DNA of 32,000 nucleotides from the NCBI RefSeq assembly GCF_000013905.1, contig NC_007969.1, positions 2,220,001-2,252,000 of the forward strand. Direction: 5' to 3'. Positions 1,251 to 22,830 of the stretch are shown here, piece by piece (positions within the stretch are counted from its first letter, which is position 1; every line of letters starts with the position of its first letter). A program made the translations under genes and the position numbers. The notes beneath the pieces are model-generated. The model had not been told where the DNA came from and did not search any database. It saw only the letters and a program-made list of their open reading frames with translations. The stretch comes from Psychrobacter cryohalolentis K5. GTDB lineage: Bacteria; Pseudomonadota; Gammaproteobacteria; Pseudomonadales; Moraxellaceae.

Positions 1251-1519
1251 CAGCCAAAGGTTCAATTCCCTAGTGAGGACTTGAATCTTAGGCTGTAGGC
1301 TAAGGGTATCAATGGTTTGTGTAGTGGCATAATAAAACTGGACAGCTTCTAAGAGGTTAGATAAACCCAAAGAAGGAAAATAGTATGACCAACAAACGCG
1401 ACCAATATATCCAAGAATTCAAACTTAAAGCTATCAGCTTAGTGGTTGATCACCAACGTAAAATACTCGATGTAGCAAACTCACTTGGTATTGGTAGATC
1501 AACTGTAGTGATCAAATAA
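1251..1519 (+). mobile_element. Decayed IS3-family insertion-sequence remnant (putative left end plus truncated orfA)
   Basis: A 44-codon ORF matches the N-terminal HTH of IS3-family OrfA transposases. It begins about 100 nt downstream of a 35-nt segment (1251-1285) that recurs inverted at 26606-26640. No orfB/DDE region follows, and the next gene (GT2) ends at 1564. Confidence 0.5.
1385..1519 (+). pseudogene. IS3-family transposase OrfA, N-terminal fragment (44 aa)
   Basis: My translation is MTNKRDQYIQEFKLKAISLVVDHQRKILDVANSLGIGRSTVVIK*. The pattern (R..Y..EFKL.AV.LV........VA..LGI..ST) is typical of the IS3/IS911/IS150 OrfA helix-turn-helix. It is truncated right after the HTH and is too short for the ORF track. 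Confidence 0.65.
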
Positions 1520-1563
1520 TTTAGAACATCTGACCACTACAGTACAGTCTCATATTGCATATC

Positions 1564-2238
1564 TTAATGTAGATTGTTTTGTTCTAAATGGGTTAGAAAT
1601 GCTGCAAAACCTTCGGTTGCTCGAGCCTGTAGTCGGCTACTGGTCATTACACGGACACGATTGCTCCAAGTGATGGCATAGCTTTGAGCTTCAAATCTAC
1701 TGACCAAGTCCACATCCTCATGACAAGGTATAGATGCAAAGCCGCCAACAGCCAGATAAGCCTCACTACTAAAACTTAAATTTGCTCCATGAATATGATG
1801 GTGTCCCATTCTATCTTGGTAATGAGCGATATAATCCTTTCGAGTTTGCGGTGTTAACCGTGCCCAACTGTCAACTTGCACTACGCCGCAAATCATATCT
1901 GTCGGCTGGTGGCTAATATGTTCAATCTGCTGTGCCAACCAATCCACAGTTACCACGGAGTCAGCGTCTGTACAGGCAATCCATGTGGCACCATTTGTGA
2001 TCGCATGACGAATACCAATATCTCTCACCCTTCCCACACATTGATAGTCACAGCATAAGTAATCAATGCCAGCGGCTTTGACGATGGACTGCGTATTATC
2101 AGTGCAGTTATCCAACACCACTAGCGGATACGCTTTAATCGTTGAGGGCAATTGCTCGATAGCGGTCCGTACTGATGCCAAGCATTTAGCGATGGTCATT
2201 GCCTCATTATGAGCGGGAATCACAATGCCAATTTTCAT
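1564..2238 (-). CDS. Family 2 glycosyltransferase (GT-A fold)
   Basis: MKIGIVIPAHNEAMTIAKCL...VVLDNCTDNT...ACTDADSVV shows the GT2 N-terminal signature and a DxD-like DAD motif. It is the last gene of the ots-linked minus-strand string. Confidence 0.85.
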   Translation of the reverse strand: MKIGIVIPAHNEAMTIAKCLASVRTAIEQLPSTIKAYPLVVLDNCTDNTQSIVKAAGIDYLCCDYQCVGRVRDIGIRHAITNGATWIACTDADSVVTVDWLAQQIEHISHQPTDMICGVVQVDSWARLTPQTRKDYIAHYQDRMGHHHIHGANLSFSSEAYLAVGGFASIPCHEDVDLVSRFEAQSYAITWSNRVRVMTSSRLQARATEGFAAFLTHLEQNNLH

Positions 2239-2282
2239 AGCCTATTTACCTTTCTACTCAGTTTTTTAAAACTTACACTCTG

Positions 2283-3080
2283 TTATATCAAGTTTTCTTG
2301 CATAGCTACCGAGCTTGGAGAACGTTGCCAAATATCTAATAAGAAATCATCGTCTATCACTTGGCTTTGATGATTGAACGCAACGTGATGCTTCTCATTA
2401 TTTGCAAAGTTAAAGGCATGGTGCAGGCGCTGATGTACAGTTTCACCTGTCATAGCAAAGCCATCAATAGCATAGCGCCAATGACAGCATAGCAATGTAC
2501 CGCCTATAACGAGGTTTTGCTGAGTCCAAGCAATCACCGTGTCAATATCATTGGGTGATAAATAATATAAAATCTCACTAATGACAATTAAATCAAAGGC
2601 TGGCTCTATAGTAGGCGTATCGTTTGATAAAGGAGAAGCCTCTATGATTGCCTCCTTTAAATTTAATAATCTATTAGGAACCACACCTTGAATAACCTTA
2701 ACATGAGACAATTCTGCCAAGCGCTCTTTGGCAAGTTGCACTGCCCGTTCATTACCATCGATACTCACTAATGCCCGACAACGTTTAGCTAATAACTCAC
2801 TAAGCACGCCGTTTCCGCAGCCTAGTTCAATGGTATTGTTATATTGAGATTGGGGTAGTATCGCTAGACAAATATCACGTTTTCGTTTTTCATACCAGCG
2901 AGTTTGATACTGCCATGGGTCTGTGTTGTCATTATATAATGCGTCAAAATACGATTCTGAATAAGCAGATGATTGGCACTTAGTAGCAGAATTATCGTCT
3001 AAGACAGTTTTAGCATAATCTATACTGTCGACTAAGTTATCGGCATTCATCGACGGCTTAGGTTCAGAGGTGTGAGTCAT
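2283..3080 (-). CDS. SAM-dependent methyltransferase, NodS-like
   Basis: DPWQYQTRWYEKRKRDICLAIL...IELGCGNGVLSELLAKRC matches the NodS-type N-terminal block plus SAM motif I (ExGCGxG). I prefer start ATG 3080 (MTHTSEPK...), which overlaps the upstream PIG-L stop by 17 nt. The longer track ORF (to 3188) would lie inside the PIG-L gene. Confidence 0.85.
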   Translation of the reverse strand: MTHTSEPKPSMNADNLVDSIDYAKTVLDDNSATKCQSSAYSESYFDALYNDNTDPWQYQTRWYEKRKRDICLAILPQSQYNNTIELGCGNGVLSELLAKRCRALVSIDGNERAVQLAKERLAELSHVKVIQGVVPNRLLNLKEAIIEASPLSNDTPTIEPAFDLIVISEILYYLSPNDIDTVIAWTQQNLVIGGTLLCCHWRYAIDGFAMTGETVHQRLHHAFNFANNEKHHVAFNHQSQVIDDDFLLDIWQRSPSSVAMQENLI

Positions 3081-3924
3081 ATAAATAAACCTCCCAAGGT
3101 TGGCTGATTCTAGCGATCGTTTGCGCGGATAAAATAGGCGGATTGCCCGTACTGTCATCAGCAGTGATTTGACTTTCAAAGCAGGCAATGGCCTCTATTT
3201 TACGCTGTAGCTGCTCAGTGGTTAAGTCAACTCTCATGGCACAGTGCCAAGGAATACGGCTATCCGCAGGTTTTGCCCAATGCCATGCCCAAATCAACAC
3301 TTGATAACAGACTAAATGATGCTGCTTGGCAAATGAGACAACCACTTGTCCAGTTGCTTCATGGTCAGGATGCCCGTCGTACATAAAGGGCGTTATTAAA
3401 ATATCGTTAGGTTGAATAATGGTGGATAGTTTCTGGTGAAACTGATCTTGTTGGGCAAAGACATTACCATCTGTTAAATTTAATTCAATAGTCATAACTT
3501 GATGGGCCACACTCAACACTTCTAGCGCTTTAATACTTTCTTGTGGACGGATGACATTAAGCTTTTCTTGAGAATAAACGTGCGAGTTTGGATGACTTTG
3601 TGTGCCATTAGTCACGTGAATAAGAACGATAGGATTGCCATTCGCCGCCAGTTGTTGCAACAGACCGCCACAGCCTAGCACTTCATCATCAGGATGCGGG
3701 GCGAAGATACAGACACGCTGATGCGGGGCAAAGCTTTTTGCAATATCAAATCGAGGCATGTCTTGCAGTCCTGACCAGTTTTTCCAAGCATCTTGACTGG
3801 TGCCATCACCTTCAATAACACGGTCACCTACAATCGGATGGTTGCCTTTAAGCGTATCAACATGCGTGACGGCGACATCCTTGTTTGTAAGTTTTATAAC
3901 CTTATTGGATATTATAGTTGCCAT
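3064..3924 (-). CDS. PIG-L/LmbE family N-acetylglucosaminyl deacetylase
   Basis: FAPHPDDEVLGCGG (the AHPDDE zinc motif) and DGHPDHEATG (the HPDH motif) are diagnostic of the PIG-L/MshB/BshB family. Confidence 0.9.
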   Translation of the reverse strand: MATIISNKVIKLTNKDVAVTHVDTLKGNHPIVGDRVIEGDGTSQDAWKNWSGLQDMPRFDIAKSFAPHQRVCIFAPHPDDEVLGCGGLLQQLAANGNPIVLIHVTNGTQSHPNSHVYSQEKLNVIRPQESIKALEVLSVAHQVMTIELNLTDGNVFAQQDQFHQKLSTIIQPNDILITPFMYDGHPDHEATGQVVVSFAKQHHLVCYQVLIWAWHWAKPADSRIPWHCAMRVDLTTEQLQRKIEAIACFESQITADDSTGNPPILSAQTIARISQPWEVYLYDSHL

Positions 3925-5000
3925 ATATTGTCCTGCCCATCAGTTAAGTCATTGGCTAAAATACCAGTTAATTCGCCGATTTTCTGTAAGTCAAAAGCGC
4001 CATGACTTTGGCGGATAAACACGGGCAGATCGGCTGACAATCTTGCAAAATGGGCATTGCGACAAAATGGTGCTGCTCCCAATGCCTGCCCGACAACCTC
4101 CATTACTTGGCGAGCGACTTTCTCAACTTGTAATTTTAGCTGGCGTATGGCAAGTTCATGACTCAGCTGTGGCTGGCTATCTATTAAATCAGCAACATAA
4201 CGAAAATACTGCTGAGTGACTGCCAATGCCGTACTAATTTGACCCAAATACATCGCTTTATAATCGTTTGGTTTTTGCTCATAGGCGCTGATTAAATAGT
4301 CTGCTAGGTAAGCGGTTGCCCCGTACCAGCAAGCAGCAACACCTGCCGCTCCATGCCAAAACCCCACACGTTCTAGATAAGCATTGGCTATCCCAACTTG
4401 ACTGGCTGTCACCTTAAAAAACTGTAAAGTTGCTGTATCAGTGGCTTGCATCCCTACCGCCTGCCATTCCTCATTATCAATCTCAATGCCAGTTTGCTGC
4501 ATATCTACAATAAGTAACTGCGATTGACCATTCTTATCACGATAGGTCATTAGCGCGCGATCAACAATGTTGGCGCCAGAACACCACTCTTTTGTACCGC
4601 TGATTTTACCCTGCTGATAATGAATAGGATTGGAGTGACCCTCTGCTGCCCAAACAGCCCACAACCCTTGATCCGCTTTATCATAGCCCACCTCATGTAA
4701 AATACTTAGCGCATCCAAGTGCGACTCAAACCATTTTGCAATCGTTAAATCAACACCTGCTACATAAGCCAAAATTTGCCAACGGATCAATGTGCTTGAT
4801 ATTGCACCATTTACATTGGTAGCACCACTTGCCGGATGCGGGACTTTCTCGCTATAGGTGATTAAGGCTTTTAGAATGTCATGACGTAATGCATCAGTTA
4901 AGCCAAGCGTCCTAATGGTTTGATTATTAGTATGTATGATATTGTCTATACTGGCTTTAATCTCTGATAATAAAGGATTTGTTGCATCTAACGGTAGCAT
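3912..5000 (-). CDS. Acyl-CoA dehydrogenase-fold flavoprotein (dehydrogenase or oxygenase; function unassigned)
   Basis: 362 aa. The central GTKEWCSGANIVDRALM matches the GxKxWxS/TxA beta-domain block of the ACAD superfamily, and it is flanked by helical N- and C-terminal domains. The gene overlaps the PIG-L start by 13 nt. Confidence 0.7.
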   Translation of the reverse strand: MLPLDATNPLLSEIKASIDNIIHTNNQTIRTLGLTDALRHDILKALITYSEKVPHPASGATNVNGAISSTLIRWQILAYVAGVDLTIAKWFESHLDALSILHEVGYDKADQGLWAVWAAEGHSNPIHYQQGKISGTKEWCSGANIVDRALMTYRDKNGQSQLLIVDMQQTGIEIDNEEWQAVGMQATDTATLQFFKVTASQVGIANAYLERVGFWHGAAGVAACWYGATAYLADYLISAYEQKPNDYKAMYLGQISTALAVTQQYFRYVADLIDSQPQLSHELAIRQLKLQVEKVARQVMEVVGQALGAAPFCRNAHFARLSADLPVFIRQSHGAFDLQKIGELTGILANDLTDGQDNIWQL

Positions 5001-5019
5001 AAGGGTCTCCTAATCGTTC

Positions 5020-6621
5020 TTATGAGTCAGACATTTGGACTGTGACAGGTTTCGAAATATCTGTTTGTCGCCTTTTAACATCATACAGATCATCTAAAAA
5101 ACTCTGCTGCCAAGCTTGCAAGTTATCTTTTTGCAGTCCTTGCAGTAGAGATTGATAGCGTGACTGCCGCTCACCTAATGGCATTGTCAAAGCAATCCCT
5201 AAACCGTCTGTCATACTTTTTGGTTGATGTGGATCGATAATGACTGCGGCTTGCATTTGCGCCGCTGCCCCAGCGTAACGTGAGAGCAATAGCACGCCAG
5301 GATTATCAGGATTTTGCGCTGCAATATACTCTTTGGCAACCAGATTCATACCATCTTTGAGCGAATTGACCCAGCCGATATCACTCTGCCAAAACATCGT
5401 CATTAGTGTCTCGTGGCTTATTACACTTTCGTCATAGTTGATAGCTTGCCAATTATCTGTAGAAGCATCTTTTGTATACTTACTGGGCAAAAACTGCTGA
5501 TTAATATCATTAACAGCAGTTTTAACATCATGATGAAGTTGTTGATAAGCAGACACATCTAAGCGACTAGGACAGGCGATTTGTAATAATTTCAGTTGAT
5601 TCTGATAGGACGGATTTTGCTGTAAAAAATTGCGATATGCTGAAAAACGTTTTAATAAACCTTTTGAGTAATCAATTCTATCTACTGCAATAATCTGCTG
5701 GGCGTTATACTTTATGCCTTTTTTGCTCTGATGAGCTTTGACGGATTGTACTGAGCACTGCGAAGACAAGGGACTGACCTGTTGTTGGATTCTCTCCACA
5801 TTCACACCGATTGGATAAGCCTTAACCATTAAAGAATGCTGGGATTTTAAATCTAAATTGAGCAGTAACTGCACATCAGATGATTTATATAGAGTAGCAG
5901 CATGTTTGTCGTGTAAAACATTTATTGGTGAGAGCTCTAAAGAACAAACTTCTAAAATCTTATCTGTTAAATAATATCTGCAAACCGCAAGGCAGTTGGC
6001 TCTACCTTGATGAGTTTGTGTACCAAGTACGTCATAATGAGCAAGGTGCCTAATGAGCTCATCGCTTTTATCAAGCGATTGCCAAAATGGCAATGAGACA
6101 AATGGGATGTGTAAAAAAAATCCGATACGATTGTGAATACCCAACTGCCTACAATGATATGCCACACTTAAAAAGTGATAATCATGAACCCAAATCACAT
6201 CATCAGGCTTAATAATCTTCTTTAATTGCTTAGCAAAAAGACGGTTTACCTCTTGATAGCCTGCGTAATCCTCTGGTGTTTCATGAATTAAATCAGGTCG
6301 CTCGTGCAATAATGGCCACAATACATTATTGGCAAACCCACAGTAAAACTGCTGATATTGCTCAGTCGTAAAAGCAGTGGTCATATAGGTAATAGAAGTC
6401 TTGCCCTGTGATATATCTATGCCTGATAAGACAGCTTGTTTGGTAATACTAAATTCATGAGAGAAATCTTCATCAAGTCTATTAACAATTTCACCATTCC
6501 AGCCCATCCAAATGACTGATTTTTCCATTAACACGTCTTGCAGTGCTATCGCCAGTCCGCCTGCCATTGGATTTTTATCAGGCATTTTAACCCGATTAGA
6601 CAAGACGATTAAGCGGCTCAT
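5020..6621 (-). CDS. otsA: Alpha,alpha-trehalose-phosphate synthase (UDP-forming)
   Basis: MSRLIVLSNRV...GGLA...WMGW...FANNVLWPLLH...VWVHDYHFL...FFLHIPF...DRIDYSKGL...SLKDGMNLVAKEY are canonical GT20 OtsA blocks. I prefer start ATG 6621, which forms an ATGA overlap with the otsB stop (6618-6620). Confidence 0.92.
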   Translation of the reverse strand: MSRLIVLSNRVKMPDKNPMAGGLAIALQDVLMEKSVIWMGWNGEIVNRLDEDFSHEFSITKQAVLSGIDISQGKTSITYMTTAFTTEQYQQFYCGFANNVLWPLLHERPDLIHETPEDYAGYQEVNRLFAKQLKKIIKPDDVIWVHDYHFLSVAYHCRQLGIHNRIGFFLHIPFVSLPFWQSLDKSDELIRHLAHYDVLGTQTHQGRANCLAVCRYYLTDKILEVCSLELSPINVLHDKHAATLYKSSDVQLLLNLDLKSQHSLMVKAYPIGVNVERIQQQVSPLSSQCSVQSVKAHQSKKGIKYNAQQIIAVDRIDYSKGLLKRFSAYRNFLQQNPSYQNQLKLLQIACPSRLDVSAYQQLHHDVKTAVNDINQQFLPSKYTKDASTDNWQAINYDESVISHETLMTMFWQSDIGWVNSLKDGMNLVAKEYIAAQNPDNPGVLLLSRYAGAAAQMQAAVIIDPHQPKSMTDGLGIALTMPLGERQSRYQSLLQGLQKDNLQAWQQSFLDDLYDVKRRQTDISKPVTVQMSDS

Positions 6622-7499
6622 ATCACGTGCCTCACTGTTTCTTTTGCTAGCATTGAATGCTCTTGGCAAAAGCTTAAAAAGCTATTCAGTAATATGGTGA
6701 CCTCATGAGTATTACGTACATAGTAATTGGCATGCGTAGCCTCACTACCAACCTTAATCCCCATCCCTTTTAATGGCTGTGGTTGACTGGCTATTATTTG
6801 ATTTTCACCTTGTACAGCCACAAACCCTACTTCATCCGTAATATCATCACCGATAAAAATAGGGAACATATTATTACTACTCTGCATTCTTTTTAATAAA
6901 GTCAGAATTGCGCTACCTTTATCCACTCCTTTTGGCACTACCTCCCAAACATATTTACCAGATTTCAATGTCCAGTTAGCATAAGTTTTTAAGGTTTCTA
7001 TCATGATGGTATAAGCCGCATCAGCCAAAACAGGGTTCTTTCGGAAATGGAGGGCGACAGAATAGGGTTTATCTTCTACGGTGAAGTCATCAAAGGGAAT
7101 GCAAGATTGGATAATAGACTTTCTTATTACAGCAAGTTCCATGATATCAACAGATACAACATGTGTCTCATTATGATCACTGATATCATCAAACGCTATT
7201 TCTAGTCCATGCGTTGCGGCAATCGGTAACACTAAAGGAGACAGCATTTGCCTTGCTTCAGCCAAACTGCGTCCTGTTACGACAGCAAGTTTTACACCAT
7301 GGCTTTGTATTTTTTGTAGAAGAGTTAAGGTTGATGTTGGGATAACGCTGTCTTTTGGATTCAGTGTGAAATCCGCTAACGTACCATCTATATCTAGAAA
7401 CAAATAATAATTTTGCTGAGGGCATAAATATTCAGCAAAGTTTTTTGGCAGAATATAGATAGGTCGCCTATTTATACTGGGATTTCTTCCTGAAGTCAC
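6618..7499 (-). CDS. otsB: Trehalose-phosphatase (HAD superfamily)
   Basis: FLDIDGTLADF is HAD motif I and FIGDDITDE is motif IV. The start is GTG at 7499, with AAGGGA 6 nt upstream. The gene is directly coupled to otsA. Confidence 0.88.
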   Translation of the reverse strand: MTSGRNPSINRRPIYILPKNFAEYLCPQQNYYLFLDIDGTLADFTLNPKDSVIPTSTLTLLQKIQSHGVKLAVVTGRSLAEARQMLSPLVLPIAATHGLEIAFDDISDHNETHVVSVDIMELAVIRKSIIQSCIPFDDFTVEDKPYSVALHFRKNPVLADAAYTIMIETLKTYANWTLKSGKYVWEVVPKGVDKGSAILTLLKRMQSSNNMFPIFIGDDITDEVGFVAVQGENQIIASQPQPLKGMGIKVGSEATHANYYVRNTHEVTILLNSFLSFCQEHSMLAKETVRHVI

Positions 7500-7722
7500 G
7501 TTTATTCCCTTTTAGTATGAGACCATTTTTCGCTCTAACACCACCTAAGTTTGAAATAATTTAGCTGCTAAAAGTTACTGTCGTTTTTAATATAGATCTA
7601 TAGGAAGGCCACTATTAAGCAACTAAACCTAATAAGAAGTGTGCCATAGCTCCAGTAAAAATCTAGTGACCAGAGTGTGCTATTTGACGTGAGTTCTGTA
7701 ACTCATTGAACACGGTTGCCAT

Positions 7723-8046
7723 TTATAGCAGGCCGCTATACATTGTATGTAATTCAATGGCGCTTAGCTTTTCGCGTAGTGCGCTCATTTGTAACTTGCA
7801 GCTCTTGTAATACGCTACTTTGTCTTTTTCTTTGTCCTCTAAGTTTTTTTGATAAGTAAAATCGTCCAATAGCATTAGACAATTTGTAATTAGCTTGAGA
7901 TTATTTAATGATAGATCCTCATACTTACCTAAAGTATGCGACTTGATTTTTGAGCGTAATTCAAATAATCCCAAATTACTGTCTTGATAATATTTTTTAA
8001 TCAGTTCGTCCCTTGATTCTACGCTACTCTTATCATTTTCTTTCAT
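7723..8046 (-). CDS. Hypothetical protein, 107 aa, no recognisable motif
   Basis: This is the track ORF 7723..8058. I prefer ATG 8046 (MKENDKSS...) because GAGGA lies 5 nt upstream. The protein is predicted all-helical and K/E/L-rich, with no signal peptide. The gene and its flanks are visibly more AT-rich than the neighbours. Confidence 0.5.
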   Translation of the reverse strand: MKENDKSSVESRDELIKKYYQDSNLGLFELRSKIKSHTLGKYEDLSLNNLKLITNCLMLLDDFTYQKNLEDKEKDKVAYYKSCKLQMSALREKLSAIELHTMYSGLL

Positions 8047-8102
8047 CGCAATCCTCAAACTATATACTCCTGTGCTTATAATTACCCATTTTTTATAAAT
8101 GA

Positions 8103-8834
8103 CTAAGCATCAAGCCAATGCTGTTGTCTGGCATAAAAAAGCTGTTTGGGCGTATCGATATCATAGCTAAGTTGATGGTTTATGACCGTACTTAACTGAT
8201 TGGGCGGTAAGGCTCTAATCAAATAGCGCAGACCTTTATCCCCTCTCAGTGCTGGTTGCCATTGTTTGAGACGCTCAACATTAATAACTATCGGAAGACC
8301 GATGATATTATTCTTACCTGTATCAGTAGAATACGCTTTATCTAGATATTGATAACTACTAGCGACCACTGTACTTTTGAACGCTAATAATTCTTTCAAA
8401 TGCTCACTATCTAACAATACTTGATCGACCCCCATGATTAACACCCGATTAATCAATGAGATCTTCAAGTTAGTTAGAGCTTCAATACCAAGAGACAAGC
8501 TATGCGCCATACCCGTTTCAGGTATTAAATTAATCACGGTATAGATTATTGGATTTTGACGGACCAACCCATTAATCGCATCAGTGATTGCTGGTTGATC
8601 TTGAGGAAGGACAACAATAATGGCAAGAGGCTTTGTGGCTAATGCTATTTTAGTCATATAACAGATGAGAGGTTCGCCATGCTTGCTAAGCAGTTGCTTA
8701 GGTTGACCAAGACGCTCGCTCAGACCGCTTGCTAAAATAATAACAGTGTGGTTTTGTTTATTATTTTCTGTACTGCTGGGCAATGGCGTTTTCGTTGGTA
8801 AAATAGAATTATTAGTATCAACATCGCTAGTCAT
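8103..8834 (-). CDS. MobA-like NTP transferase domain protein, probable molybdenum cofactor cytidylyltransferase (MocA-like)
   Basis: VIILASGLSERLGQPKQLL is the MobA/MocA nucleotide-binding N-terminal motif (AGxSxRMGxxKxLL). The gene lies directly downstream of xdhC. The start is uncertain (ATG 8834 or 8846); either choice overlaps the xdhC stop at 8827-8829. Confidence 0.72.
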   Translation of the reverse strand: MTSDVDTNNSILPTKTPLPSSTENNKQNHTVIILASGLSERLGQPKQLLSKHGEPLICYMTKIALATKPLAIIVVLPQDQPAITDAINGLVRQNPIIYTVINLIPETGMAHSLSLGIEALTNLKISLINRVLIMGVDQVLLDSEHLKELLAFKSTVVASSYQYLDKAYSTDTGKNNIIGLPIVINVERLKQWQPALRGDKGLRYLIRALPPNQLSTVINHQLSYDIDTPKQLFYARQQHWLDA

Positions 8835-10176
8835 GGGCGTAATCATTTTTATAGGTATTGAAGCCTGATTGCTTTGAGGTTTGAATAGTATATTGACTAT
8901 TTGGCAGTAAGGTTTGTGGCGCGTGCCCATGAATCACGGCGCTCATTTGTGCCATGATACTGAGTGCCAATGCTTCAGGTCCATCCCCACCCAACTTATA
9001 ACCGATAGGATAATGCAGTTTACAAATACCATCAGCTAAAATATGTGGGTTAGCACTTGTCTCACTAATTTCTTTGATCAAACGCTCAGTACGATAGCGA
9101 GGTCCCAGTTGTCCAAGATAACGATATTGAGCAGAATGCTCTAGTAGTACGGCTAGTCGGGCGCGGTCTTGGGCCAGACTATGAGACATCACAGCAACGG
9201 CGGCGCCAGCACTGAGATTGAGCAATGTTTCACTATCATCCAAAGCCACGCACAGTACTGAGTCTGCTTGGCTAAAGCGCAGACGTGTCGCATATTGTGG
9301 ACGACTGTCTATGACGGTGACATGCCAATCTTGTAGCTTTGCCATTGTCACCAGCGGTAGAACATCGTTACCTGCCCCGCAAATCAGTAATCGGTTTTGT
9401 GGGTAAATCCGCTGCAATAACCACTCACTCTCATGCTTCCGATCACATGTAGCTTGTAGCTCTAGATCGCTCGTTAACTTAATGTATTCAGCATTTTTTT
9501 TATGAAACTTATGGTTTGATAGTTTTTGAATGGTATTTAACAACATATCATCTATAAACGTATTCGAATCGCTTATCGTGTTGCGGTTCAAATATAAATC
9601 AGCCAGATTTCCCGTTTTTAAATACTGATTTAAATAAATACGGGTACCAACTTGCAGGTCAATCCCTTTATATTCGCTACTACCCGATCTAATAAGAGTG
9701 GCAATTGTTACTGGCTGTTGAGTATGGCGAACCTGACGGATGAGATCAAGTAACGATATCGCTGTCGATAAACGCTCAAATAAGACATGTATTCGTCCAT
9801 TACAACCCAAGCCAAAATTGAGCTCACCCTCTAAAAAATCGTCTTCAGACCTATCTTCATCTTTGACAGTAGTGCCTTCTTCTACAACAGTTGAATCAGG
9901 ATCGCCATTGTTATGATATCCAATATCATCCCCTGTTTGGTATATCTGGACGCTCGCGCTATAACGGGTCAGCCAAAACGCGCGTTTGATAATATGCGGC
10001 TCAAGGCAGCCGCCGCTAATCATCCCAACCGAACGTCCATCAGCGCAGATAAGCATCATCGCACCCGGTTGCCGATACGCCGAGCCTTCTGTACGAACTA
10101 CGGTAGCTAATACGGCATCGATGTTTTGTTGTATCGCTTGCTCAGCAAGGTCAAGGATATCAGCAGTTTGATTCAT
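8827..10176 (-). CDS. XdhC/CoxI family molybdoenzyme maturation factor
   Basis: The N-terminal LATVVRTEGSAYRQPGAMMLI...GMISGGCLE matches the XdhC_CoxI domain. The C-terminal RLLICGAGNDVLPLVTMAKLQDWHVTVIDSRP matches the XdhC Rossmann domain. A long acidic/low-complexity insert separates them. Confidence 0.85.
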   Translation of the reverse strand: MNQTADILDLAEQAIQQNIDAVLATVVRTEGSAYRQPGAMMLICADGRSVGMISGGCLEPHIIKRAFWLTRYSASVQIYQTGDDIGYHNNGDPDSTVVEEGTTVKDEDRSEDDFLEGELNFGLGCNGRIHVLFERLSTAISLLDLIRQVRHTQQPVTIATLIRSGSSEYKGIDLQVGTRIYLNQYLKTGNLADLYLNRNTISDSNTFIDDMLLNTIQKLSNHKFHKKNAEYIKLTSDLELQATCDRKHESEWLLQRIYPQNRLLICGAGNDVLPLVTMAKLQDWHVTVIDSRPQYATRLRFSQADSVLCVALDDSETLLNLSAGAAVAVMSHSLAQDRARLAVLLEHSAQYRYLGQLGPRYRTERLIKEISETSANPHILADGICKLHYPIGYKLGGDGPEALALSIMAQMSAVIHGHAPQTLLPNSQYTIQTSKQSGFNTYKNDYAHD

Positions 10177-10218
10177 AACGTTCCTTATAGACTTATCAAT
10201 AAGCTTAGAGAATAAGCT

Positions 10219-10249
10219 AAAAAAACCCGCTGTTTAATCGGGTTTTTTT
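10219..10249. terminator. Symmetric hairpin flanked by an A-tract and a T-tract (bidirectional intrinsic-terminator-like)
   Basis: The sequence is aaaaaaacccg-ctgtttaat-cgggttttttt. On the minus strand it lies 25 nt after the stop of the Moco subunit gene and upstream of xdhC. The GC core is only 4 bp, so it may be leaky. Confidence 0.55.
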
Positions 10250-10273
10250 AAGCAAAACAGTATTTGATAAGAA

Positions 10274-12727
10274 TCAATCTGGCAGTTGGTCAATAAGCTT
10301 ATCTAGAGTAATGGGGAAATCTCGAACCCGGATACCGACCGCATTATAGATAGCATTTGCAATCGCTGCTGCAGCGCCTGAAATCGCCGTTTCACCAATG
10401 CCTTTGATATGCATTGGATTGGTATAACGGTCGTCTTCTTCTAGCAAAATAACATCCAATTGTGGTACATCAGCATTCACAGGAATATGGTATTCAGAGA
10501 GGTCATGATTACACAAGCGCCCGTCATGCTTATCATGGATAACTTCTTCCATTAACGCCGAACCTATGCCAAAAACCATACCACCATAGCACTGTGAAGT
10601 AGCAGTTTTGTGATTGAGGATACGCCCTGCGGCGAACACACCTGTCATACGCTTGACTCGAATCTCACCAGTTACTCGGTGCACAGCGACTTCCGCAAAA
10701 TTGGCACCGAATGAAGATTGGCGATGGGTTTTTTCATTTTTACCCGGTTTAATCTTGCCTTTAGCACTTAACTTTTGGTCGTCATATTGCGCGATAATAT
10801 CGGCTAGTGAATAACTATTATGGCCACTAAAATCATACCTGCTTTGTTTAGCCTCCTGCTTCTCCGGCAAGCGTTCCAATACAGATTCAGGGAGAGGCAC
10901 GCTCGTTTTTTCTGCTAACTTCTCTACAAGTTCAGTGGTGACATCCTTACCAGATTCAATGATAGTCTCTGTTGCTGTAACTTCATGCTCTCCTATTTCA
11001 CTGATCTGACCGTCATTTAGCTGGATGGTGTCGGAATATAGTCCGACTTTGTCTGCCAGCATTTCACGCAATTGCTGACACGCCAGATAAATACTGCTAC
11101 CTGAGCTTGCCGCACCCATGCTACCGCCTGAACCAACGGCTGGCGGCATACTGGTATCGCCAAGTTTCATCTCAATATGGTCAACCGGTAGACCAAGTAG
11201 GTCAGCAGCAATTTGGGTAAATACGGTATAGGAGCCCGTACCAATATCGGTCATATCCGTTTCAATAATGGCTTTGATCCCAAGATTTTTTGAGTCATCG
11301 ATTTGTAGGGTTGCTCTTGCTTCAGAAAGCTTTAACTGATTACCACGGGCAGCGGCAGCCATACCGATACCCAACCACCAGTCTCCTTCTAAGCGCTTGG
11401 CGGGTATTTTATTGCGTTTCTCCCAACCAAACTGCTCAGCCCCTTTTTCCATACAGGCGATCAGCTGTCGAGTTGAAAAAGGTATTTCTTTACTAGGATC
11501 CTGATGAGGCTCATTACGGCGGCGTAGCTCTATAGGATCCATATCTAATTGAATGGCCAACTCGTCCATTGCACATTCAACAGCAATTAACCCCACTGCT
11601 TCCCCAGGAGCGCGCATTGAACCTGATAATACTTTATTGACATCAACCATCTGATATTCGACCTGACGATTTTCACCGCGGTATAGATAGTGAGTAGACA
11701 GCGCTGCAGGCTCAAAGAAGCTCTCGCCGGGTAAATTGCTAGTGATGGTATTATGGATAAAAGTATTAATAATACCGTTCTTATTACAGCCGATGCCAAT
11801 CCGTTGACGCGTATCTGAGCGCCTTATAGTGGTTTCCATGACTTGCGGGCGAGTCATCACAATCAATACCGGACGCTTAAGCTCTTTTGCAGAAATGGCT
11901 GCGGCAATCGATTCGGGTGCAATGCCAAGTTTACTGCCAAAACCGCCACCAACGTAATGAGCAATCAGTTGTACATTATCTGGATCCAAATTTAAGGCAT
12001 CCGCCACTTGTTGTTTGCAAGATGACAACATCTGATTGGCCGTATACAATACTAACTTTTCATCCTCCCAATAAGCCAATGTAGCATGTGGCTCCATGGG
12101 CGAACTACTCTGGCTTGGCGTATGATAAATCTGATCAAACGAAACCTCAGACTCTTTAAGTGCTTGCTCTGGGTAGCCCTGCTTATAATTCTTGTCCGAA
12201 CCTTTGTTTTCATCAACCGAATGCGCATTTCCCAATGCTGAGCTGAAATCTATCACAGCATTTGCTGTTTCATCTTCATAAGTCACCTTGAGGGCTTTTG
12301 CGCCTTCAGTAGCCGCTTCAAAGGTTTCAGCGATTACGGCAGCTATGGGCTGACCATGGTAAAAAATTTCAGCGACGCCTTGAGTGGGTGCTTTTTTCTC
12401 TCCGCCTTGCTGAGCATTACGCAAAAAATGCTCGGGATCAGTAACCACTTTAATAATACCTGGAATCGCCTCTACTGCATGGCTATCGATGTGCTTCACC
12501 TTGCCTTTAGCAATGGTCGCACCCACTAAGACGCCATACACCTGCCCTTCAACATAAAATTCTGCGCTATAAGTCGCTTGTCCACTGACTTTCAAGGAAC
12601 CGTCTACACGGTTGATAGGTTTACCAACCAATTGACTGGCAGTTTTATCAAAAAGAGTATCAACTGGGTTATCCATGGTCAGTTTTTTTGTGGGTTCTGA
12701 TGGCAGTACTGCGTCCAATAGTGACAT
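10274..12727 (-). CDS. Xanthine dehydrogenase family molybdopterin-binding large subunit (PaoC/YagR-like aldehyde oxidoreductase)
   Basis: 817 aa. Typical Ald_Xan_dh blocks are present: GQATYSAEF, HYVGGGFGSK, SGSMRAPGE, and GIGETAISGAAAAIANAIYNAVGIRVRDFPIT at the C-terminus. Confidence 0.92.
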   Translation of the reverse strand: MSLLDAVLPSEPTKKLTMDNPVDTLFDKTASQLVGKPINRVDGSLKVSGQATYSAEFYVEGQVYGVLVGATIAKGKVKHIDSHAVEAIPGIIKVVTDPEHFLRNAQQGGEKKAPTQGVAEIFYHGQPIAAVIAETFEAATEGAKALKVTYEDETANAVIDFSSALGNAHSVDENKGSDKNYKQGYPEQALKESEVSFDQIYHTPSQSSSPMEPHATLAYWEDEKLVLYTANQMLSSCKQQVADALNLDPDNVQLIAHYVGGGFGSKLGIAPESIAAAISAKELKRPVLIVMTRPQVMETTIRRSDTRQRIGIGCNKNGIINTFIHNTITSNLPGESFFEPAALSTHYLYRGENRQVEYQMVDVNKVLSGSMRAPGEAVGLIAVECAMDELAIQLDMDPIELRRRNEPHQDPSKEIPFSTRQLIACMEKGAEQFGWEKRNKIPAKRLEGDWWLGIGMAAAARGNQLKLSEARATLQIDDSKNLGIKAIIETDMTDIGTGSYTVFTQIAADLLGLPVDHIEMKLGDTSMPPAVGSGGSMGAASSGSSIYLACQQLREMLADKVGLYSDTIQLNDGQISEIGEHEVTATETIIESGKDVTTELVEKLAEKTSVPLPESVLERLPEKQEAKQSRYDFSGHNSYSLADIIAQYDDQKLSAKGKIKPGKNEKTHRQSSFGANFAEVAVHRVTGEIRVKRMTGVFAAGRILNHKTATSQCYGGMVFGIGSALMEEVIHDKHDGRLCNHDLSEYHIPVNADVPQLDVILLEEDDRYTNPMHIKGIGETAISGAAAAIANAIYNAVGIRVRDFPITLDKLIDQLPD

Positions 12728-12729
12728 GA

Positions 12730-13722
12730 TTATGCTCCCTTACCCGTTAGTGCGCGCTCAATAACTTGCTTTAACAAGCGACTCGTCAGCGGTATCTTAA
12801 AATCGTTCTGACCACTACCCTTGGCATCTTTTAATAGCAAATCTGCCGCTTGCGAAATAATGTTGACGTTACCGTCTGTACCTATGAGTAATGCTTCAAC
12901 CGCTTCATTACGCCAAGGCTTAGTGCCAATACCACCAAATGCCAAACGTACCGTTTCTAATTTTCCTTGATTATTGACGTTTATTACGGCCGCACATGAC
13001 ACTAAAGCAAAGGCGTAAGAGGCGCGATCACGAACTTTGTCATAAGTGTGCATGCCTTTCACTGGAGCTGGGAGAACAATATGAGTAATCAGCTCCCCTG
13101 TCTCTAAGACAGTTTCGATATTTGGCGTGTCTTTTGGCAAGCAATAGAAGTCTTTAATCGGAATCTGGCGCGAGGTGCCGTCTGCTTTGAGCGTCTCAAT
13201 AGTGGCATCGAGTAAGCGCATCGCTACCGCCATATCTGATGGGTGCTGAGCAATACAATCATCACTCGTTCCTAAGACAGCAAGCGGACGATTTTCACCT
13301 TTAATAGCGGGACAACCAGAACCAGGATTGCGTTTATTACAAGGACTATCGGGCTGATAAAAGTAGTAACAACGGGTGCGTTGTAATAGATTGCCGCCTG
13401 TGGTCGCTTTATTACGCAATTGTCCTGAAGCCCCTGCTAGCATCGCCCGAGCTAATACAGGGTAGCCTGCCGTAACCGCTGGGTGCGCAGCCAAATCACT
13501 GTTCGTCACCAGCGTGCCGATGCGTAACCCACCATCAGCAGTAGCCTCTATTTGTTGCAGCTCTAAGCGCGTAATATCAACCAATTTTTGAGGAGTCTCA
13601 ATCTCAATCTTCATTAAATCTAGTAAATTGGTGCCACCGGCAATAAAAGATGCATCCTCAGGCGTGGCAAACATCACGGCTTGTTGCGGTTCGAGGACAC
13701 GAATATATTCAAAGCGTTTCAT
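12730..13722 (-). CDS. Xanthine dehydrogenase family FAD-binding subunit (PaoB/CoxM-like)
   Basis: MKRFEYIRV...FIAGGTNLLDLMK is the FAD_binding_5 N-terminus, and a CO-dehydrogenase flavoprotein C-terminal-like region follows. There is an ATGA overlap with the upstream 2Fe-2S gene (13719-13722). Confidence 0.9.
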   Translation of the reverse strand: MKRFEYIRVLEPQQAVMFATPEDASFIAGGTNLLDLMKIEIETPQKLVDITRLELQQIEATADGGLRIGTLVTNSDLAAHPAVTAGYPVLARAMLAGASGQLRNKATTGGNLLQRTRCYYFYQPDSPCNKRNPGSGCPAIKGENRPLAVLGTSDDCIAQHPSDMAVAMRLLDATIETLKADGTSRQIPIKDFYCLPKDTPNIETVLETGELITHIVLPAPVKGMHTYDKVRDRASYAFALVSCAAVINVNNQGKLETVRLAFGGIGTKPWRNEAVEALLIGTDGNVNIISQAADLLLKDAKGSGQNDFKIPLTSRLLKQVIERALTGKGA

Positions 13723-14402
13723 AAACGTTCTCCCTTAGCACTGGCAGCATTGGGAACATTAGCAGTTTGCTTTACCATTGAATGACCGCCAATTTGTGCC
13801 TCGCTAGGCGGCGGCGACCAAATACCACTAATAGCTACACTGGCTGGGCTATTATTAGGCGCATCGTCGGTCACTGAAGAAGAGTTTGATACTTGTTGAT
13901 TTTCGAGCACCTGTGAGATGGCTTTGATAATATTAGGATAGGCTGAACAGCGACAGATATTACCACTCATGCGCTCAGAAATTTCTTGTACTAGCAGTCC
14001 ATTAGGATTTTGCAGATCAGTAGTCACATGACTTGGCCACTGTTGTTTGATTTCCTCTATCAATGCCGTTGCAGAACAAATTTGTCCCGGCGTGCAATAG
14101 CCACATTGAAAGGCATCATGGTCTTTAAAGGCCTGTTGCAATTCTGATAGCGATTCAGGTAGTCCGATACCTTCAATGGTGGTAATCTCATCACCATCGT
14201 GCATGACCGCTAATGTCAAACAAGAATTGATTCGTCGACCATTAATAATCATAGTACAAGCGCCGCATTGCCCATGATCGCAGCCTTTTTTTGGTCCTGT
14301 GATATGTAGATGGTGACGACATACATCCAGCAATGTCGTTCGCGGGTCAAGATTATCAAACTCATAATCCTGCTGATTAATTGTTAACATTAAATTAGAC
14401 AT
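13719..14402 (-). CDS. (2Fe-2S)-binding small subunit of the molybdoenzyme (PaoA/CoxS-like)
   Basis: GCDHGQCGACTMIINGRRINSC and CGYCTPGQI...GNICRCSAYPNI are the two canonical [2Fe-2S] cysteine clusters. There is no twin-arginine leader. About 60 aa of S/N/P/A-rich C-terminal tail is present. Confidence 0.92.
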   Translation of the reverse strand: MSNLMLTINQQDYEFDNLDPRTTLLDVCRHHLHITGPKKGCDHGQCGACTMIINGRRINSCLTLAVMHDGDEITTIEGIGLPESLSELQQAFKDHDAFQCGYCTPGQICSATALIEEIKQQWPSHVTTDLQNPNGLLVQEISERMSGNICRCSAYPNIIKAISQVLENQQVSNSSSVTDDAPNNSPASVAISGIWSPPPSEAQIGGHSMVKQTANVPNAASAKGERL

Positions 14403-15333: not shown

Positions 15334-16059
15334 CTATATACCTCCTGCCCCTTTACTTGATGCCTCACTGTTTTCAACCAATATCGCTGCAGCGCTTTTT
15401 TTCAGAGTTGCCCACTGCCCATCATCAACATAAATACCTTCTTTCCATGCCCGCTGATGGGTTGCATACAGCTCATCTGTTGATACTTTACGATCAAAGT
15501 ACTGAATATCCTGTTCAATATCAAAGTTGGTTGTTGATAACTCAATGACCATGTCATTGGTATTGTAATTAGCCTGCGCTTCATTAAAAAAATACAGATC
15601 AGGATAGACAAATCTTCTATCTAAAGTAAATATCGTATGCTTGGGTGCGCTACCATTGTCCCACTTCGCCAAACAAGCAATGCCTTTTGCCGCCAGTTTT
15701 GCAAGCTCACTATAAGCCAGCCAGCGGTTATGACAATTCTGTAAATATACTTTAAAATGATTTCGACTGCCCATCTTTTCGATCACATAATCCATCACTG
15801 CCGGTAGATGACAGACCAGACTGCTCCCATGCAAATCTAATCTGACTTCACCCTCGCCTTGATAGATGATATCAATCGCAACATCACGTTCAGACAAAAT
15901 AAAAGGACTGGCATTATTAAAATGCAAAATACCGTTTAGACCTGCCATTTGCAGCTCAGCTACCATGGAAGCAATAAGGTCAGCTTCGCCTACTTCACGT
16001 TGCATACCCAGAAAAGCTTTATTCACCATGGTCACTATTTCGTTATGCGATACGATCAT
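15334..16059 (-). CDS. Uncharacterised protein, 241 aa (resembles DUF3726-type proteins from memory; unverified)
   Basis: The ATG at 16059 overlaps the stop of the upstream 576-aa gene by 17 nt. The N-terminal S.NEI....KA..G.....G.A......V..L...GL.G pattern and the C-terminal ...LVENSEASSKGAGG tail recall a conserved hypothetical family. I recognise no catalytic motif. Confidence 0.7.
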   Translation of the reverse strand: MIVSHNEIVTMVNKAFLGMQREVGEADLIASMVAELQMAGLNGILHFNNASPFILSERDVAIDIIYQGEGEVRLDLHGSSLVCHLPAVMDYVIEKMGSRNHFKVYLQNCHNRWLAYSELAKLAAKGIACLAKWDNGSAPKHTIFTLDRRFVYPDLYFFNEAQANYNTNDMVIELSTTNFDIEQDIQYFDRKVSTDELYATHQRAWKEGIYVDDGQWATLKKSAAAILVENSEASSKGAGGI

Positions 16060-17773: not shown

Positions 17774-17875
17774 ATAACTATCACCTTCAATAATGTGTTG
17801 AACCAACCACCTTTTAATACTGTAGATTTGCAGTTTTTATGAGCAAATAAACTATCAGCGATAACAAAGCGCTAT

Positions 17876-19561: not shown

Positions 19562-19634
19562 GATGTAATTCCATATGATAATGTTGCGTCATTTAAATTG
19601 GCGTTTTATCTAAACCGTCTTACCCATCTATATT

Positions 19635-19664
19635 TTAATGCTTGTTACTTTAATGCTTATTACT
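19635..19664. repeat. 15-nt tandem direct repeat x2 (ttaatgcttgttact / ttaatgcttattact)
   Basis: Read directly. There is one mismatch. It lies in the 149-nt spacer between the M19-like gene and the BCCT gene. Confidence 0.9.
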
Positions 19665-19710
19665 TTGAGTTTTAGCCAGCATTTTAGAAAGCTACATCTG
19701 TGCCTAGCAT

Positions 19711-20700
19711 TTATACTAAAGGCTTAATGCCACTCTCAAGAAAATTAAACCAGTTTTGTCCAATGATTTTTCCAGCATCAGCATCATTAAAACCATGTTT
19801 GAGCAGACCGTTATAAATATTCTCCATCCCGTCCTTGCCTGCAAACCATGGCAAAGTATCTGGCCAACCTGAATTGTTGGCATTACCTTCGCCATAATCC
19901 ATTGCCTTTGACCAGCGTCCATTGCGCATCCATTCAAGTACCGCTTGCGGTTGGTTCAGGCACAAGTCACTACCAATGGCTAAATGCTCAACGCCATATT
20001 TATCGGCACAATCAGCAACCATGCTGCAAAAATCATTGAGCGTACAATCACTACCATTCGGCAAATGAAACGGATATAGGCTAAAACCTAACAGCCCGCC
20101 CGCTTTGGTTAAGGCACTAATAACGGCATCAGATTTATTACGCAGCGCATCGTGTGCAGCCGTTGGATTGGCATGACTGATACATATCGGGCGCGTAGAA
20201 TACTCGATCGCTTCAAGCGTTGAACGCTCTGCGCTATGCGACATATCGATAATCATCCCAACTCGATTCATCTCTGCTATCGCCTGCTGACCAAAGCGCG
20301 TAATGCCACTATCATTCTTCTCATAACAACCGGTTGCTAGTAGGCTTTGGTTGTTATACGTCAGCTGCATGATCAGTAGTCCTAAGCGGCGCATCACGCT
20401 GATAAGCCCAATTTCATCATCAATCGGTGAACAATTTTGCGCGCCAAAAAGGATACCGACTTTACCTTGCTGCTTTGCCATCTCAATATCAGTAACTGAA
20501 TACACTGGTAAGATAAGATCTGAGTTTTGCTCAAAGCGTGCATGCCATTCTGCAAAGCGTGTCATTGTCTGCCGCGAATCCTCGTGATAAACCAAGGTGG
20601 CATGTACCGCATTGATACCGCTGGCTTGCAGCATTTTGAAATAGTCACGATCCCAATGGCTATACTGTAAGCCGTCAATGACGATATGGTCTTGATACAT
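19711..20700 (-). CDS. Peptidase M19 (renal/membrane dipeptidase) family homologue with non-canonical metal-ligand positions
   Basis: 329 aa. VIDG....., GKVGILFGAQNCSPID, IIDMSHSAERS, ICISHANP and IGSDL match the M19 TIM-barrel blocks. See the findings for the ligand substitutions. Confidence 0.85.
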   Translation of the reverse strand: MYQDHIVIDGLQYSHWDRDYFKMLQASGINAVHATLVYHEDSRQTMTRFAEWHARFEQNSDLILPVYSVTDIEMAKQQGKVGILFGAQNCSPIDDEIGLISVMRRLGLLIMQLTYNNQSLLATGCYEKNDSGITRFGQQAIAEMNRVGMIIDMSHSAERSTLEAIEYSTRPICISHANPTAAHDALRNKSDAVISALTKAGGLLGFSLYPFHLPNGSDCTLNDFCSMVADCADKYGVEHLAIGSDLCLNQPQAVLEWMRNGRWSKAMDYGEGNANNSGWPDTLPWFAGKDGMENIYNGLLKHGFNDADAGKIIGQNWFNFLESGIKPLV

Positions 20701-20792
20701 GGTTAATTCCTTTTATACTTTTACGAATGCATTGTGGCAGGAGAATCTTTACCAGCCACACATCACTATTAGCACCTGTCATTAACTGACTC

Positions 20793-22268: not shown

Positions 22269-22340
22269 AGTGGCGTCCTCAGTTTATTAAAATTCAAATG
22301 ATAAAATGATTTAAAGAGCTGTATAAATATAGTGGAAAAA

Positions 22341-22730: not shown

Positions 22731-22830
22731 ATCGTCATATCCTTTGAATGAATGGTTTGGCAATTTCTGTGTTATTGATTATCCTACGCAATAAATAGTG
22801 ACAAATCTAACTAATTAAATATTAAATATG

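Follow-up and report, generated by a model that had tools for sequence, protein, structure and literature searches.

An otsBA operon of Psychrobacter cryohalolentis K5 carries a widespread four-gene module that may serve stress protection

The DNA analysed here, called the window below, is a stretch of 32,000 nucleotides (nt) from Psychrobacter cryohalolentis K5 (assembly GCF_000013905.1, contig NC_007969.1, positions 2,220,001 to 2,252,000). The list of open reading frames (ORFs) and the sequence place six ORFs on its minus strand. The first two are otsB (6618..7499, 293 amino acids (aa) from a GTG start) and an otsA-like gene of glycosyltransferase family GT20 (5020..6621, 533 aa). They are followed by the genes for a flavoprotein-like protein with the acyl-CoA dehydrogenase (ACAD) fold (3912..5000, 362 aa), a PIG-L/LmbE-family zinc deacetylase (3064..3924, 286 aa), a NodS-like class I S-adenosylmethionine (SAM)-dependent methyltransferase (2283..3080, 265 aa, ATG at 3080) and a small soluble glycosyltransferase of family GT2 with a GT-A fold (1564..2238, 224 aa). 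The last four genes form a module that is met again in organisms as far apart as Streptomyces, Pseudomonas and Acinetobacter baumannii, mostly beside stress-survival genes, and that therefore probably represents an undescribed stress-protection pathway.

The six genes constitute a single, tightly coupled operon that is preceded by a conserved, putative control region of its own and closed by a hairpin. Read in the sequence, otsB and otsA share an ATGA stop/start overlap (6618-6621), the 19-nt gap between otsA and the ACAD-fold gene (5001-5019) contains an AGGAGA ribosome-binding site, the ACAD-fold and PIG-L genes overlap by 13 nt, the PIG-L and methyltransferase genes overlap by 17 nt, and the longest spacing in the operon, 44 nt, lies between the methyltransferase and GT2 genes. 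The sequence-only reading, an earlier note made from the letters of this DNA, had given these coordinates, overlaps and gaps, and they hold base for base. It had also seen no hairpin with a T-tract at any junction, in agreement with our consensus scan, which found no terminator-like site at the junctions. RNA folding covered three regions, namely the sequence upstream of otsB and the otsA/ACAD and methyltransferase/GT2 junctions, none of which folded better than its shuffles. The counts of promoter-like and terminator-like sites over the whole region equal the shuffled expectation in the same scan. A candidate internal promoter at 3939-3911, with 10 of 12 matches to the hexamer pair, was rejected on account of this site count and of the position of its -10 hexamer, which falls within the PIG-L coding sequence, 3' of the start codon.

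A 17-bp hairpin (1502..1543, minus strand) begins 20 nt 3' of the GT2 stop codon. Its folding energy of -24.8 kcal/mol (z = -4.46) was equalled by none of 200 shuffles and no U-tract follows the stem; it is likely the 3' end of the operon. A 44-aa ORF on the plus strand (1385-1519), convergent with the GT2 gene, overlaps this hairpin. It matches Pfam HTH_Tnp_1 slightly under the gathering score (E = 1.3e-4, 22.5 bits), and, resembling the N-terminal helix-turn-helix of IS3-type transposases, it is probably an insertion-sequence remnant at the 3' boundary of the operon.

At the other end, a conserved element occupies 7637..7702 on the minus strand. It consists of GTTACAGAA (7694-7702) followed by TATGGCACACT (7638-7648), which starts 54 nt past the start of the former, and about 140 nt separate its end from the otsB start. 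In 11 of 14 Psychrobacter loci, next to unrelated upstream genes, the motif TATGGCA[ACG]ACT precedes otsB by 120-240 nt, and in 6 of these loci GTTACAGAA starts exactly 54 nt ahead of it. Only one extra copy of the motif occurred among all fetched loci (L010:247, minus strand), and none was found near the module or otsBA in the Acinetobacter and Pseudomonas loci. That the element is kept while the genes upstream of it are unrelated is consistent with one control region serving all six genes, and the element is a putative promoter or operator. The TGGCA core brought a sigma-54 promoter to mind, which was discarded since the GG-to-GC spacing in the alignment is unsuitable. A search of Rfam gave no RNA-family match anywhere in the window, the upstream element included.

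Domain calls were made with Pfam and NCBIfam profiles, taking the gathering score (Pfam) or the equivalog cut-off (NCBIfam) as threshold. OtsB belongs to the trehalose-6-phosphate phosphatase (T6PP) family, with 101.8 bits for Pfam Trehalose_PPase and 125.9 bits for NCBIfam TIGR00685 (cut-off 68.05). OtsA is clearly a GT20 enzyme (PF00982 Glyco_transf_20, 321 bits against a cut-off of 32.5). Its best NCBIfam family is TIGR02400 OtsA, at 447.6 bits and thus under the equivalog cut-off of 564.85, followed by glucosylglycerol-phosphate synthase at 222.8 bits. The protein is divergent and, at 533 aa against 456 positions, exceeds the TIGR02400 profile by about 75 aa; given this extra length and the score below the cut-off, specificity as a trehalose-6-phosphate synthase is assumed.

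The ACAD-fold protein matches a single Pfam family, Acyl-CoA_dh_M, at 31.0 bits against a gathering score of 33.3, and gives no match to the N- and C-terminal ACAD domains of Pfam, which places it outside the true ACADs by domain content. Its AlphaFold2 model (predicted local distance difference test (pLDDT) score of 94) nevertheless shows the three domains of the ACAD fold. Among the top Foldseek matches, oxygenases of this fold (DszC, TdsC, MsuC, DnmZ, KijD3, XiaF) are intermixed with true ACADs, with TM-scores of about 0.6-0.75 and 12-17% identity; the group D oxygenases give 0.60-0.74, and true ACADs score equally high. At the level of sequence the only relatives are DszC/TdsC, SfnB and MsuC, all of them distant: the NCBIfam scores are 24.3 bits for SfnB (cut-off 430.9) and 22.3 bits for DszC (cut-off 850), and the PDB match to TdsC (E = 1e-5) extends over 72 residues only. 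The protein belongs to a distinct family of 195 clusters at 50% identity (E<1e-30), whose members are 310-390 aa long, have a reduced N-terminal domain and share the invariant blocks ExHxDA, KxWCSGA, RPGFWHGxxGVAACW and DLxVFxRQSH. An identical protein and locus are present in GCA_904845985.1 (contig CAJGYZ010000003.1).

In a profile alignment with a genuine ACAD (L005:1878-3032, ...RLYRLYEGT...), the catalytic Glu364 of the YEG motif lies opposite Ser332 of RQSH, in a column that holds Ser, His, Cys and other residues across the family, and the IVD-type Glu position falls within a 7-residue deletion beside RVGFW-HG. With one catalytic Glu replaced and the alternative site deleted, the ACAD-fold protein is not a canonical dehydrogenase. 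The sequence-only reading had set a true acyl-CoA dehydrogenase against an oxygenase of the nitrososynthase or DszC type, and it is the latter that the protein resembles. The group D flavin monooxygenases (DszC/TdsC, SfnB and MsuC, as well as ORF36/DnmZ/KijD3) likewise combine the three-domain ACAD fold with a replaced catalytic Glu. The present protein differs from them by its 12-17% identity, its shorter length and its own motifs (ExHxDA, RPGFWHG, RQSH), and its flavin binding and oxygenase role are predicted. A flavin-dependent oxygenase acting in the manner of DszC or of the nitrososynthases is plausible.

The deacetylase is a member of the PIG-L superfamily (PF02585, 94.3 bits against a cut-off of 28.2), and its translation carries FAPHPDDEVLGCGG and DGHPDHEATG, so that the metal-binding motifs APHPDDE and GHPDH are intact. 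Its best NCBIfam families are BshB1 (58.1 bits against 182.5) and BshB2 (50.8 bits against 195.25), which leaves it outside the BshB/MshB group, and its nearest solved relatives in the PDB are archaeal diacetylchitobiose deacetylases. The motifs listed in the sequence-only reading were largely borne out, namely HPDH, ELGCGNG, the GT2 DxD (as TDADS) and the GxKxWxSGA block of the ACAD-fold protein (as GTKEWCSGA); the one given as AHPDDE reads APHPDDE.

The methyltransferase is a class I SAM-dependent enzyme, with ELGCGNG and several Methyltransf_* Pfam families over their cut-offs. Its Pfam NodS match (44.1 bits, gathering score 24) covers only profile positions 14-94 of 201, the NodS equivalog NF041650 scores 56.6 bits against 300, and no nod gene is found nearby. 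We therefore call it NodS-like and place it outside NodS proper. Its PDB matches are led by 4ISC, an unannotated structural-genomics methyltransferase (E = 5.5e-30), followed by NodS (3OFJ) and the gentamicin 3''-N-methyltransferase GenN. Both NodS and the gentamicin enzyme N-methylate amino sugars.

The glycosyltransferase belongs to GT2 (PF00535 Glycos_transf_2, 66.6 bits against 23.3). D91-A-D93 and E174-D175, within the TDAD and HED motifs, are invariant in 27-33 orthologues, as is a block reading HxHxHGAN. No sequence match was found in the PDB. The AlphaFold2 model (pLDDT 85) has generic GT-A neighbours in Foldseek (6P61, WrtF, K4CP, AvpGT, TarS and GpgS), and the Foldseek search gives no pointer to a donor or acceptor. 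The N-terminus weakly matches PpgS, a polyprenyl-phospho-GalNAc synthase, in NCBIfam (E = 1.5e-6, far under the cut-off). None of the four module enzymes reaches an NCBIfam equivalog cut-off, including those of BshB1/2, NodS and the named GT2s, and no hydrophobic segment of the transmembrane type was seen in any of the six proteins.

The distribution of the module was explored by a genome scan with the family alignment, from which the best-scoring 80 of at least 573 matching loci were taken; the six operon proteins were then searched in them by tblastn. All 14 distinct Psychrobacter loci carry otsB-otsA and the module in the same order, with differing flanks and with 58-100% identity in the ACAD-fold protein, and the six-gene block relocates as a unit between genomic contexts within the genus. 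The gap between otsA and the ACAD-fold gene measures 8-34 nt and holds a conserved TAGGAGA in 13 of these 14 loci. It is longer in one Psychrobacter metagenome-assembled genome (MAG; ~105 nt) and in Moraxella osloensis (~55-65 nt), and in the 80-locus sample these two taxa, Psychrobacter and M. osloensis, are the only ones with otsBA directly upstream on the same strand. The adjacency is thus a property of the genus and not of one strain, and no terminator or convincing promoter splits otsA from the module.

The order ACAD-PIG-L-methyltransferase-GT2 is kept in Psychrobacter, Acinetobacter (A. baumannii included), M. osloensis, about 40 Pseudomonas loci, Herbaspirillum, Noviherbaspirillum, Azoarcus and Paenalcaligenes. 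Caballeronia has the first three module genes, and in Janthinobacterium the contig ends after the first. The ACAD-fold family is abundant in Streptomyces, where the four genes follow in the same order, mostly with 4-nt overlaps. The sequence-only reading had raised the question of whether the four genes always travel together, and from Psychrobacter to Streptomyces they do travel as a set. The four tailoring genes are an autonomous module. A few loci depart from the full set: the GT2 gene of an Acinetobacter MAG (L019; 10293-10940) has an in-frame stop, the PIG-L gene was undetected in two Pseudomonas loci (L064 and L076), and the GT2 gene is absent in a Streptomyces locus (L091), which may be signs of module decay. 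The gene order, coordinates and identities to the operon proteins of L030 (BMPS01000015.1, labelled Streptomyces cinereus JCM 3040) are near-identical to those of the M. osloensis loci L031 and L033, and this record is therefore probably Moraxella-contaminated.

The surroundings of the module differ between lineages and are rich in stress genes. In the A. lwoffii group the arrangement is dps-katE-module-MFS-otsAB with otsAB convergent, where MFS denotes a gene of the major facilitator superfamily; A. halotolerans has module-MFS-otsAB, and an Azoarcus MAG has otsA/otsB-module-katE. Five loci of the P. syringae/fluorescens type read malQ-treY-orf-glgX-module, with an EEP gene and glgB further on in most, and the TreY and GlgX beside the module score above their NCBIfam equivalog cut-offs. 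About 21-25 loci of the P. putida group read (DUF72-EEP-clsB-ybhN)-ligD-module-ku. The Streptomyces module has dps, a large catalase gene (katE), genes for SigB-like sigma factors, gas-vesicle genes, DJ-1 and ku within 9 kb. In most lineages the module lies without otsBA within 8 kb, and most loci are without any trehalose gene within that distance.

The coupling of the module to the gene upstream is as tight in other lineages as in Psychrobacter. In four Pseudomonas loci (L057, L053, L043, L084) the first module gene overlaps the glgX stop codon or starts a few nt from it, and in three loci of the P. putida group (L071, L047, L054) it overlaps the ligD stop by 4 nt. In these three and in L045, ku follows 3' of the module on the opposite strand, and a sugar-type pathway thus lies inside the gene pair for nonhomologous end joining. 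Depending on the lineage, the module is translationally coupled to otsA, to the glycogen/trehalose enzyme gene glgX or to the DNA-repair ligase gene ligD. These three different upstream partners are the main reason why we read the Psychrobacter fusion as shared expression and not as proof of a trehalose substrate.

In P. syringae, glgA-treZ-malQ-treY-glgX has been reported as one operon, and the treY/Z operon was ended at glgX PSPTO_3130 (PMC8982409). We found no paper that characterises the module in the open-access literature. The sole mention found places LmbE, the glycosyl transferase and the methyltransferase among the neighbours that STRING gives for BlsA of A. baumannii (PMC9948694). 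The combination of an ACAD-fold protein with a glycosyltransferase, a PIG-L enzyme and a NodS-like methyltransferase is not described in the literature found, and the view of the sequence-only reading that the set matches no described pathway stands, with no NCBIfam equivalog cut-off reached by the four enzymes. The P. syringae trehalose locus of Freeman et al. 2010 is said to comprise PSPTO_3125-3134, an interval that would span the four genes.

Transcript data are available for A. baumannii ATCC 17978, where the module adjoins bipA and blsA, not otsBA. In the A. baumannii locus L092 (GCA_048988785.1, 6142-10928) the module is flanked by a DUF2171 gene, bipA (YgiW/BOF family) and the blue-light sensor gene blsA. 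RNA sequencing of ATCC 17978 at 23 °C gave all four module genes 1.7-2.1-fold higher under blue light than in the dark (PMC9948694 Data Set S1, Table S2). Expressed as fragments per kilobase per million (FPKM), the values in the dark and under blue light were 12.4 and 20.7 for the ACAD-like gene (AUO97_RS00050), 15.6 and 30.9 for PIG-L (AUO97_RS00045), 8.1 and 17.1 for the methyltransferase (AUO97_RS00040), and 7.7 and 14.4 for GT2 (AUO97_RS00035) (PMC9948694). In the same experiment otsA rose 2.09-fold and otsB 2.79-fold, and DUF2171 (4.3-fold) and bipA (2.9-fold) both exceeded the module, with blsA at ~1.5-fold (PMC9948694). Induction of the module is therefore coordinated across its four genes and runs parallel to that of otsBA in A. 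baumannii. Moraxellaceae are without RpoS, and otsA, otsB and katE of A. baumannii depend on DksA (PMC10325922). No entry was found in the supplement of the DksA transcriptome under the names PIG-L, LmbE, BLUF, blsA or otsA.

Taken together, the conserved module, its stress-gene neighbourhoods and its induction alongside otsBA lead us to favor, as a better-than-even explanation, a model where the module is a general-stress component (desiccation, osmotic, oxidative, stationary-phase) that is co-expressed with trehalose genes and whose product is a stress-protective amino-sugar conjugate. According to this model, the ordinary trehalose genes otsB-otsA would have become joined to an autonomous module of four genes with a wide distribution, which would be attached in each lineage to whichever stress operon lies upstream, be it otsBA, glgA-treZ-malQ-treY-glgX or ligD, and the Psychrobacter fusion would ensure that the module product is made whenever trehalose is made.

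The chemistry that we infer, from the substrate and the order of the steps to the product and its protective role, draws on analogy with related enzymes. All four module proteins would be cytoplasmic. The GT2, predicted to be inverting and soluble, would transfer an N-acetyl-hexosamine to a soluble cytoplasmic acceptor, the PIG-L enzyme would take the acetyl group off this product, the NodS/GenN-like methyltransferase would N-methylate the freed amine, and the ACAD-fold enzyme would carry out an oxidation as a flavin-dependent oxygenase in the manner of a nitrososynthase or of DszC. Alternatively, the three tailoring steps could take place on the nucleotide sugar ahead of transfer, as with thymidine-diphosphate amino sugars. 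The product, probably a cytoplasmic N-modified amino-sugar conjugate, would serve as a protectant alongside trehalose. A more specific and more tentative proposal is an undescribed N-methylated and/or N-oxygenated amino-sugar glycoside, possibly built on a trehalose or alpha-glucan intermediate, that might act as a widespread desiccation, osmotic and oxidative protectant in Actinobacteria and Proteobacteria (A. baumannii, P. putida, P. syringae, Streptomyces).

Several points weigh against the stress-component model. The 80-locus sample is phylogenetically clumped and may amount to perhaps 6-8 independent arrangements, and about 14 loci have no recognisable stress gene within 8 kb. The induction in A. 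baumannii is modest and given as single FPKM values whose replicates are not visible, and this transcript evidence comes from A. baumannii, not Psychrobacter. The chemical scheme is a family-level analogy, with no module enzyme at an equivalog cut-off and an uninformative fold search for the GT2. Finally, two of the three operon fusions and two more adjacencies involve trehalose genes, which could exceed what co-regulation alone would give.

This last point bears on the strongest competitor, in which the GT2 uses trehalose or trehalose-6-phosphate, supplied by OtsBA or, in Pseudomonas, by TreYZ, directly as its acceptor and the module yields a modified trehalose, for instance an aminoglycosyl-trehalose that is N-methylated or oxidised. 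The module is linked to trehalose genes in at least four independent arrangements: otsBA is fused to it in Psychrobacter and Moraxella, otsAB is convergent in the A. lwoffii group and A. halotolerans, the Azoarcus MAG has otsA/otsB, and Pseudomonas has malQ-treY-glgX. This recurrent linkage to two non-homologous pathways, OtsBA and the TreY type, means that a metabolic link may exist, and all six proteins are, like trehalose, predicted to be cytoplasmic. However, the coupling to ligD is equally tight, so linkage need not mean shared chemistry; in Streptomyces the surroundings are dominated by dps, katE, ku and genes for sigma factors, and trehalose genes are absent from them; trehalose genes are missing within 8 kb of most loci; and neither the sequence nor the fold of the GT2 hints at a trehalose acceptor. 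The sequence-only reading had taken the coupling to otsBA as a mark of trehalose or trehalose-6-phosphate as acceptor or co-product, a conclusion that is not supported in this form, since the module mostly occurs without otsBA within 8 kb and is equally coupled to ligD and glgX. We regard a trehalose acceptor as unlikely, though the least so of the competing explanations.

It is doubtful that the module serves the salvage, repair or detoxification of damaged or imported N-acetylated amino-sugar compounds under stress in place of biosynthesis. Repair enzymes are frequent in stress islands, DJ-1/PfpI and a glyoxalase-like protein are encoded near the Streptomyces module, the solved structures closest to the PIG-L enzyme are those of diacetylchitobiose deacetylases, which are catabolic, and the proteins closest in sequence to the ACAD-fold protein (DszC, SfnB and MsuC) are oxygenases of catabolism. 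A glycosyltransferase and a methyltransferase, on the other hand, typify building over degrading, and no transporter, kinase or hydrolase is conserved beside the module.

Modification of the envelope is a still weaker candidate. Here the GT2 would make a polyprenyl-phosphate-linked N-acetyl-hexosamine that is deacetylated, tailored and then handed on to lipid A or to a polymer of the wall, much as in the ArnC/ArnD or FlmF2/NaxD schemes. A GT2 acting with a deacetylase is established for lipid-linked amino sugars, and the PpgS match of the GT2 N-terminus (E = 1.5e-6, far under the cut-off) goes in the same direction. Against this, the four module proteins lack segments that are strongly hydrophobic or could span a membrane, the genes conserved beside the module include neither a flippase nor a final transferase, and the same module is found in Gram-negatives and in Streptomyces despite their unlike envelopes. 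That otsBA and the module are separately transcribed and functionally unrelated neighbours is hardly credible: the promoter-like hexamer pair (10/12) at 3939-3911 and the longer gaps in one Psychrobacter MAG (~105 nt) and M. osloensis (~55-65 nt) would fit it, but promoter-like counts equal those of shuffled sequence, the -10 hexamer lies 3' of the PIG-L start codon, the 8-34 nt gap between otsA and the ACAD-fold gene with its ribosome-binding site is genus-wide, the junctions are without hairpins and the block shifts between contexts as a unit.

Several known systems resemble the module in parts. The bacillithiol and mycothiol pathways (BshA/BshB, MshA/MshB), the PIG-A/PIG-L steps of glycosylphosphatidylinositol synthesis and BtrM/BtrD of aminoglycoside synthesis also pair a glycosyltransferase with a PIG-L/LmbE enzyme and then tailor the amine. 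A cytoplasmic location and a stress-protective context are further points in common with the module, and BshB1/BshB2 are the best NCBIfam matches of its deacetylase. The bacillithiol and mycothiol pathways, however, use a GT4 enzyme (BshA/MshA) and a cysteine ligase (BshC/MshC), neither of which is part of the conserved block, whereas the module has an inverting GT2, a methyltransferase and an ACAD-fold flavoprotein. Nod-factor tailoring by NodC, NodB and NodS likewise joins a GT2, de-N-acetylation and a methyltransferase of the NodS kind. There, though, NodB is a CE4 enzyme, NodC is a membrane chitin-oligosaccharide synthase and NodA is an acyltransferase, compared with a PIG-L enzyme, a soluble 224-aa GT2 and no NodA in the module, and the context is symbiosis instead of stress.

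The trehalose part of the operon has its own parallels. The otsBA operons of E. coli and A. baumannii share with that of Psychrobacter the order otsB-otsA, the overlapping stop and start codons and stress-linked expression, but Psychrobacter and M. osloensis carry four extra downstream genes, and the Psychrobacter OtsA is longer and below its equivalog cut-off. Pseudomonas stress islands cluster trehalose and alpha-glucan genes with ligD, ku and katE, and the module lies inside them, coupled to glgX or ligD.

Elsewhere in the window, a complete cluster for a molybdoenzyme of the xanthine dehydrogenase family (8103-14402, minus strand) lies upstream of otsB on the same strand. It encodes a 2Fe-2S subunit, an FAD subunit, an 817-aa molybdopterin subunit, XdhC and a MocA-like cytidylyltransferase, and it is followed by an unannotated 111-aa ORF (7723-8058) that ends 223 nt before otsB. 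Further on, the interval 15334-23791 contains genes for a betaine/carnitine/choline transporter (BCCT), an M19 dipeptidase-like protein, an aldehyde dehydrogenase, a DUF3726 protein, a 587-aa protein without Pfam match and a divergent LysR regulator. This cluster may be concerned with a compatible solute, and its BCCT gene explains why the AT skew spikes at 18-19 kb.

One and the same module is translationally coupled to a gene of a sugar pathway in some lineages and to that of a DNA ligase in another, which is a caution for genome mining, as an operon fusion can mark shared timing and not shared chemistry. Carriers of the module include A. baumannii, a clinical concern for the way it persists on dry surfaces in hospitals, as well as the genetically tractable models P. 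putida, P. syringae and Streptomyces. The tools that textbooks list for bacterial survival of drying, salt, oxidants and dormancy are trehalose, catalase, Dps and Ku/LigD. From Streptomyces to Acinetobacter, the module would be a fifth conserved component among these tools and would fill a gap in the current picture of stress survival.

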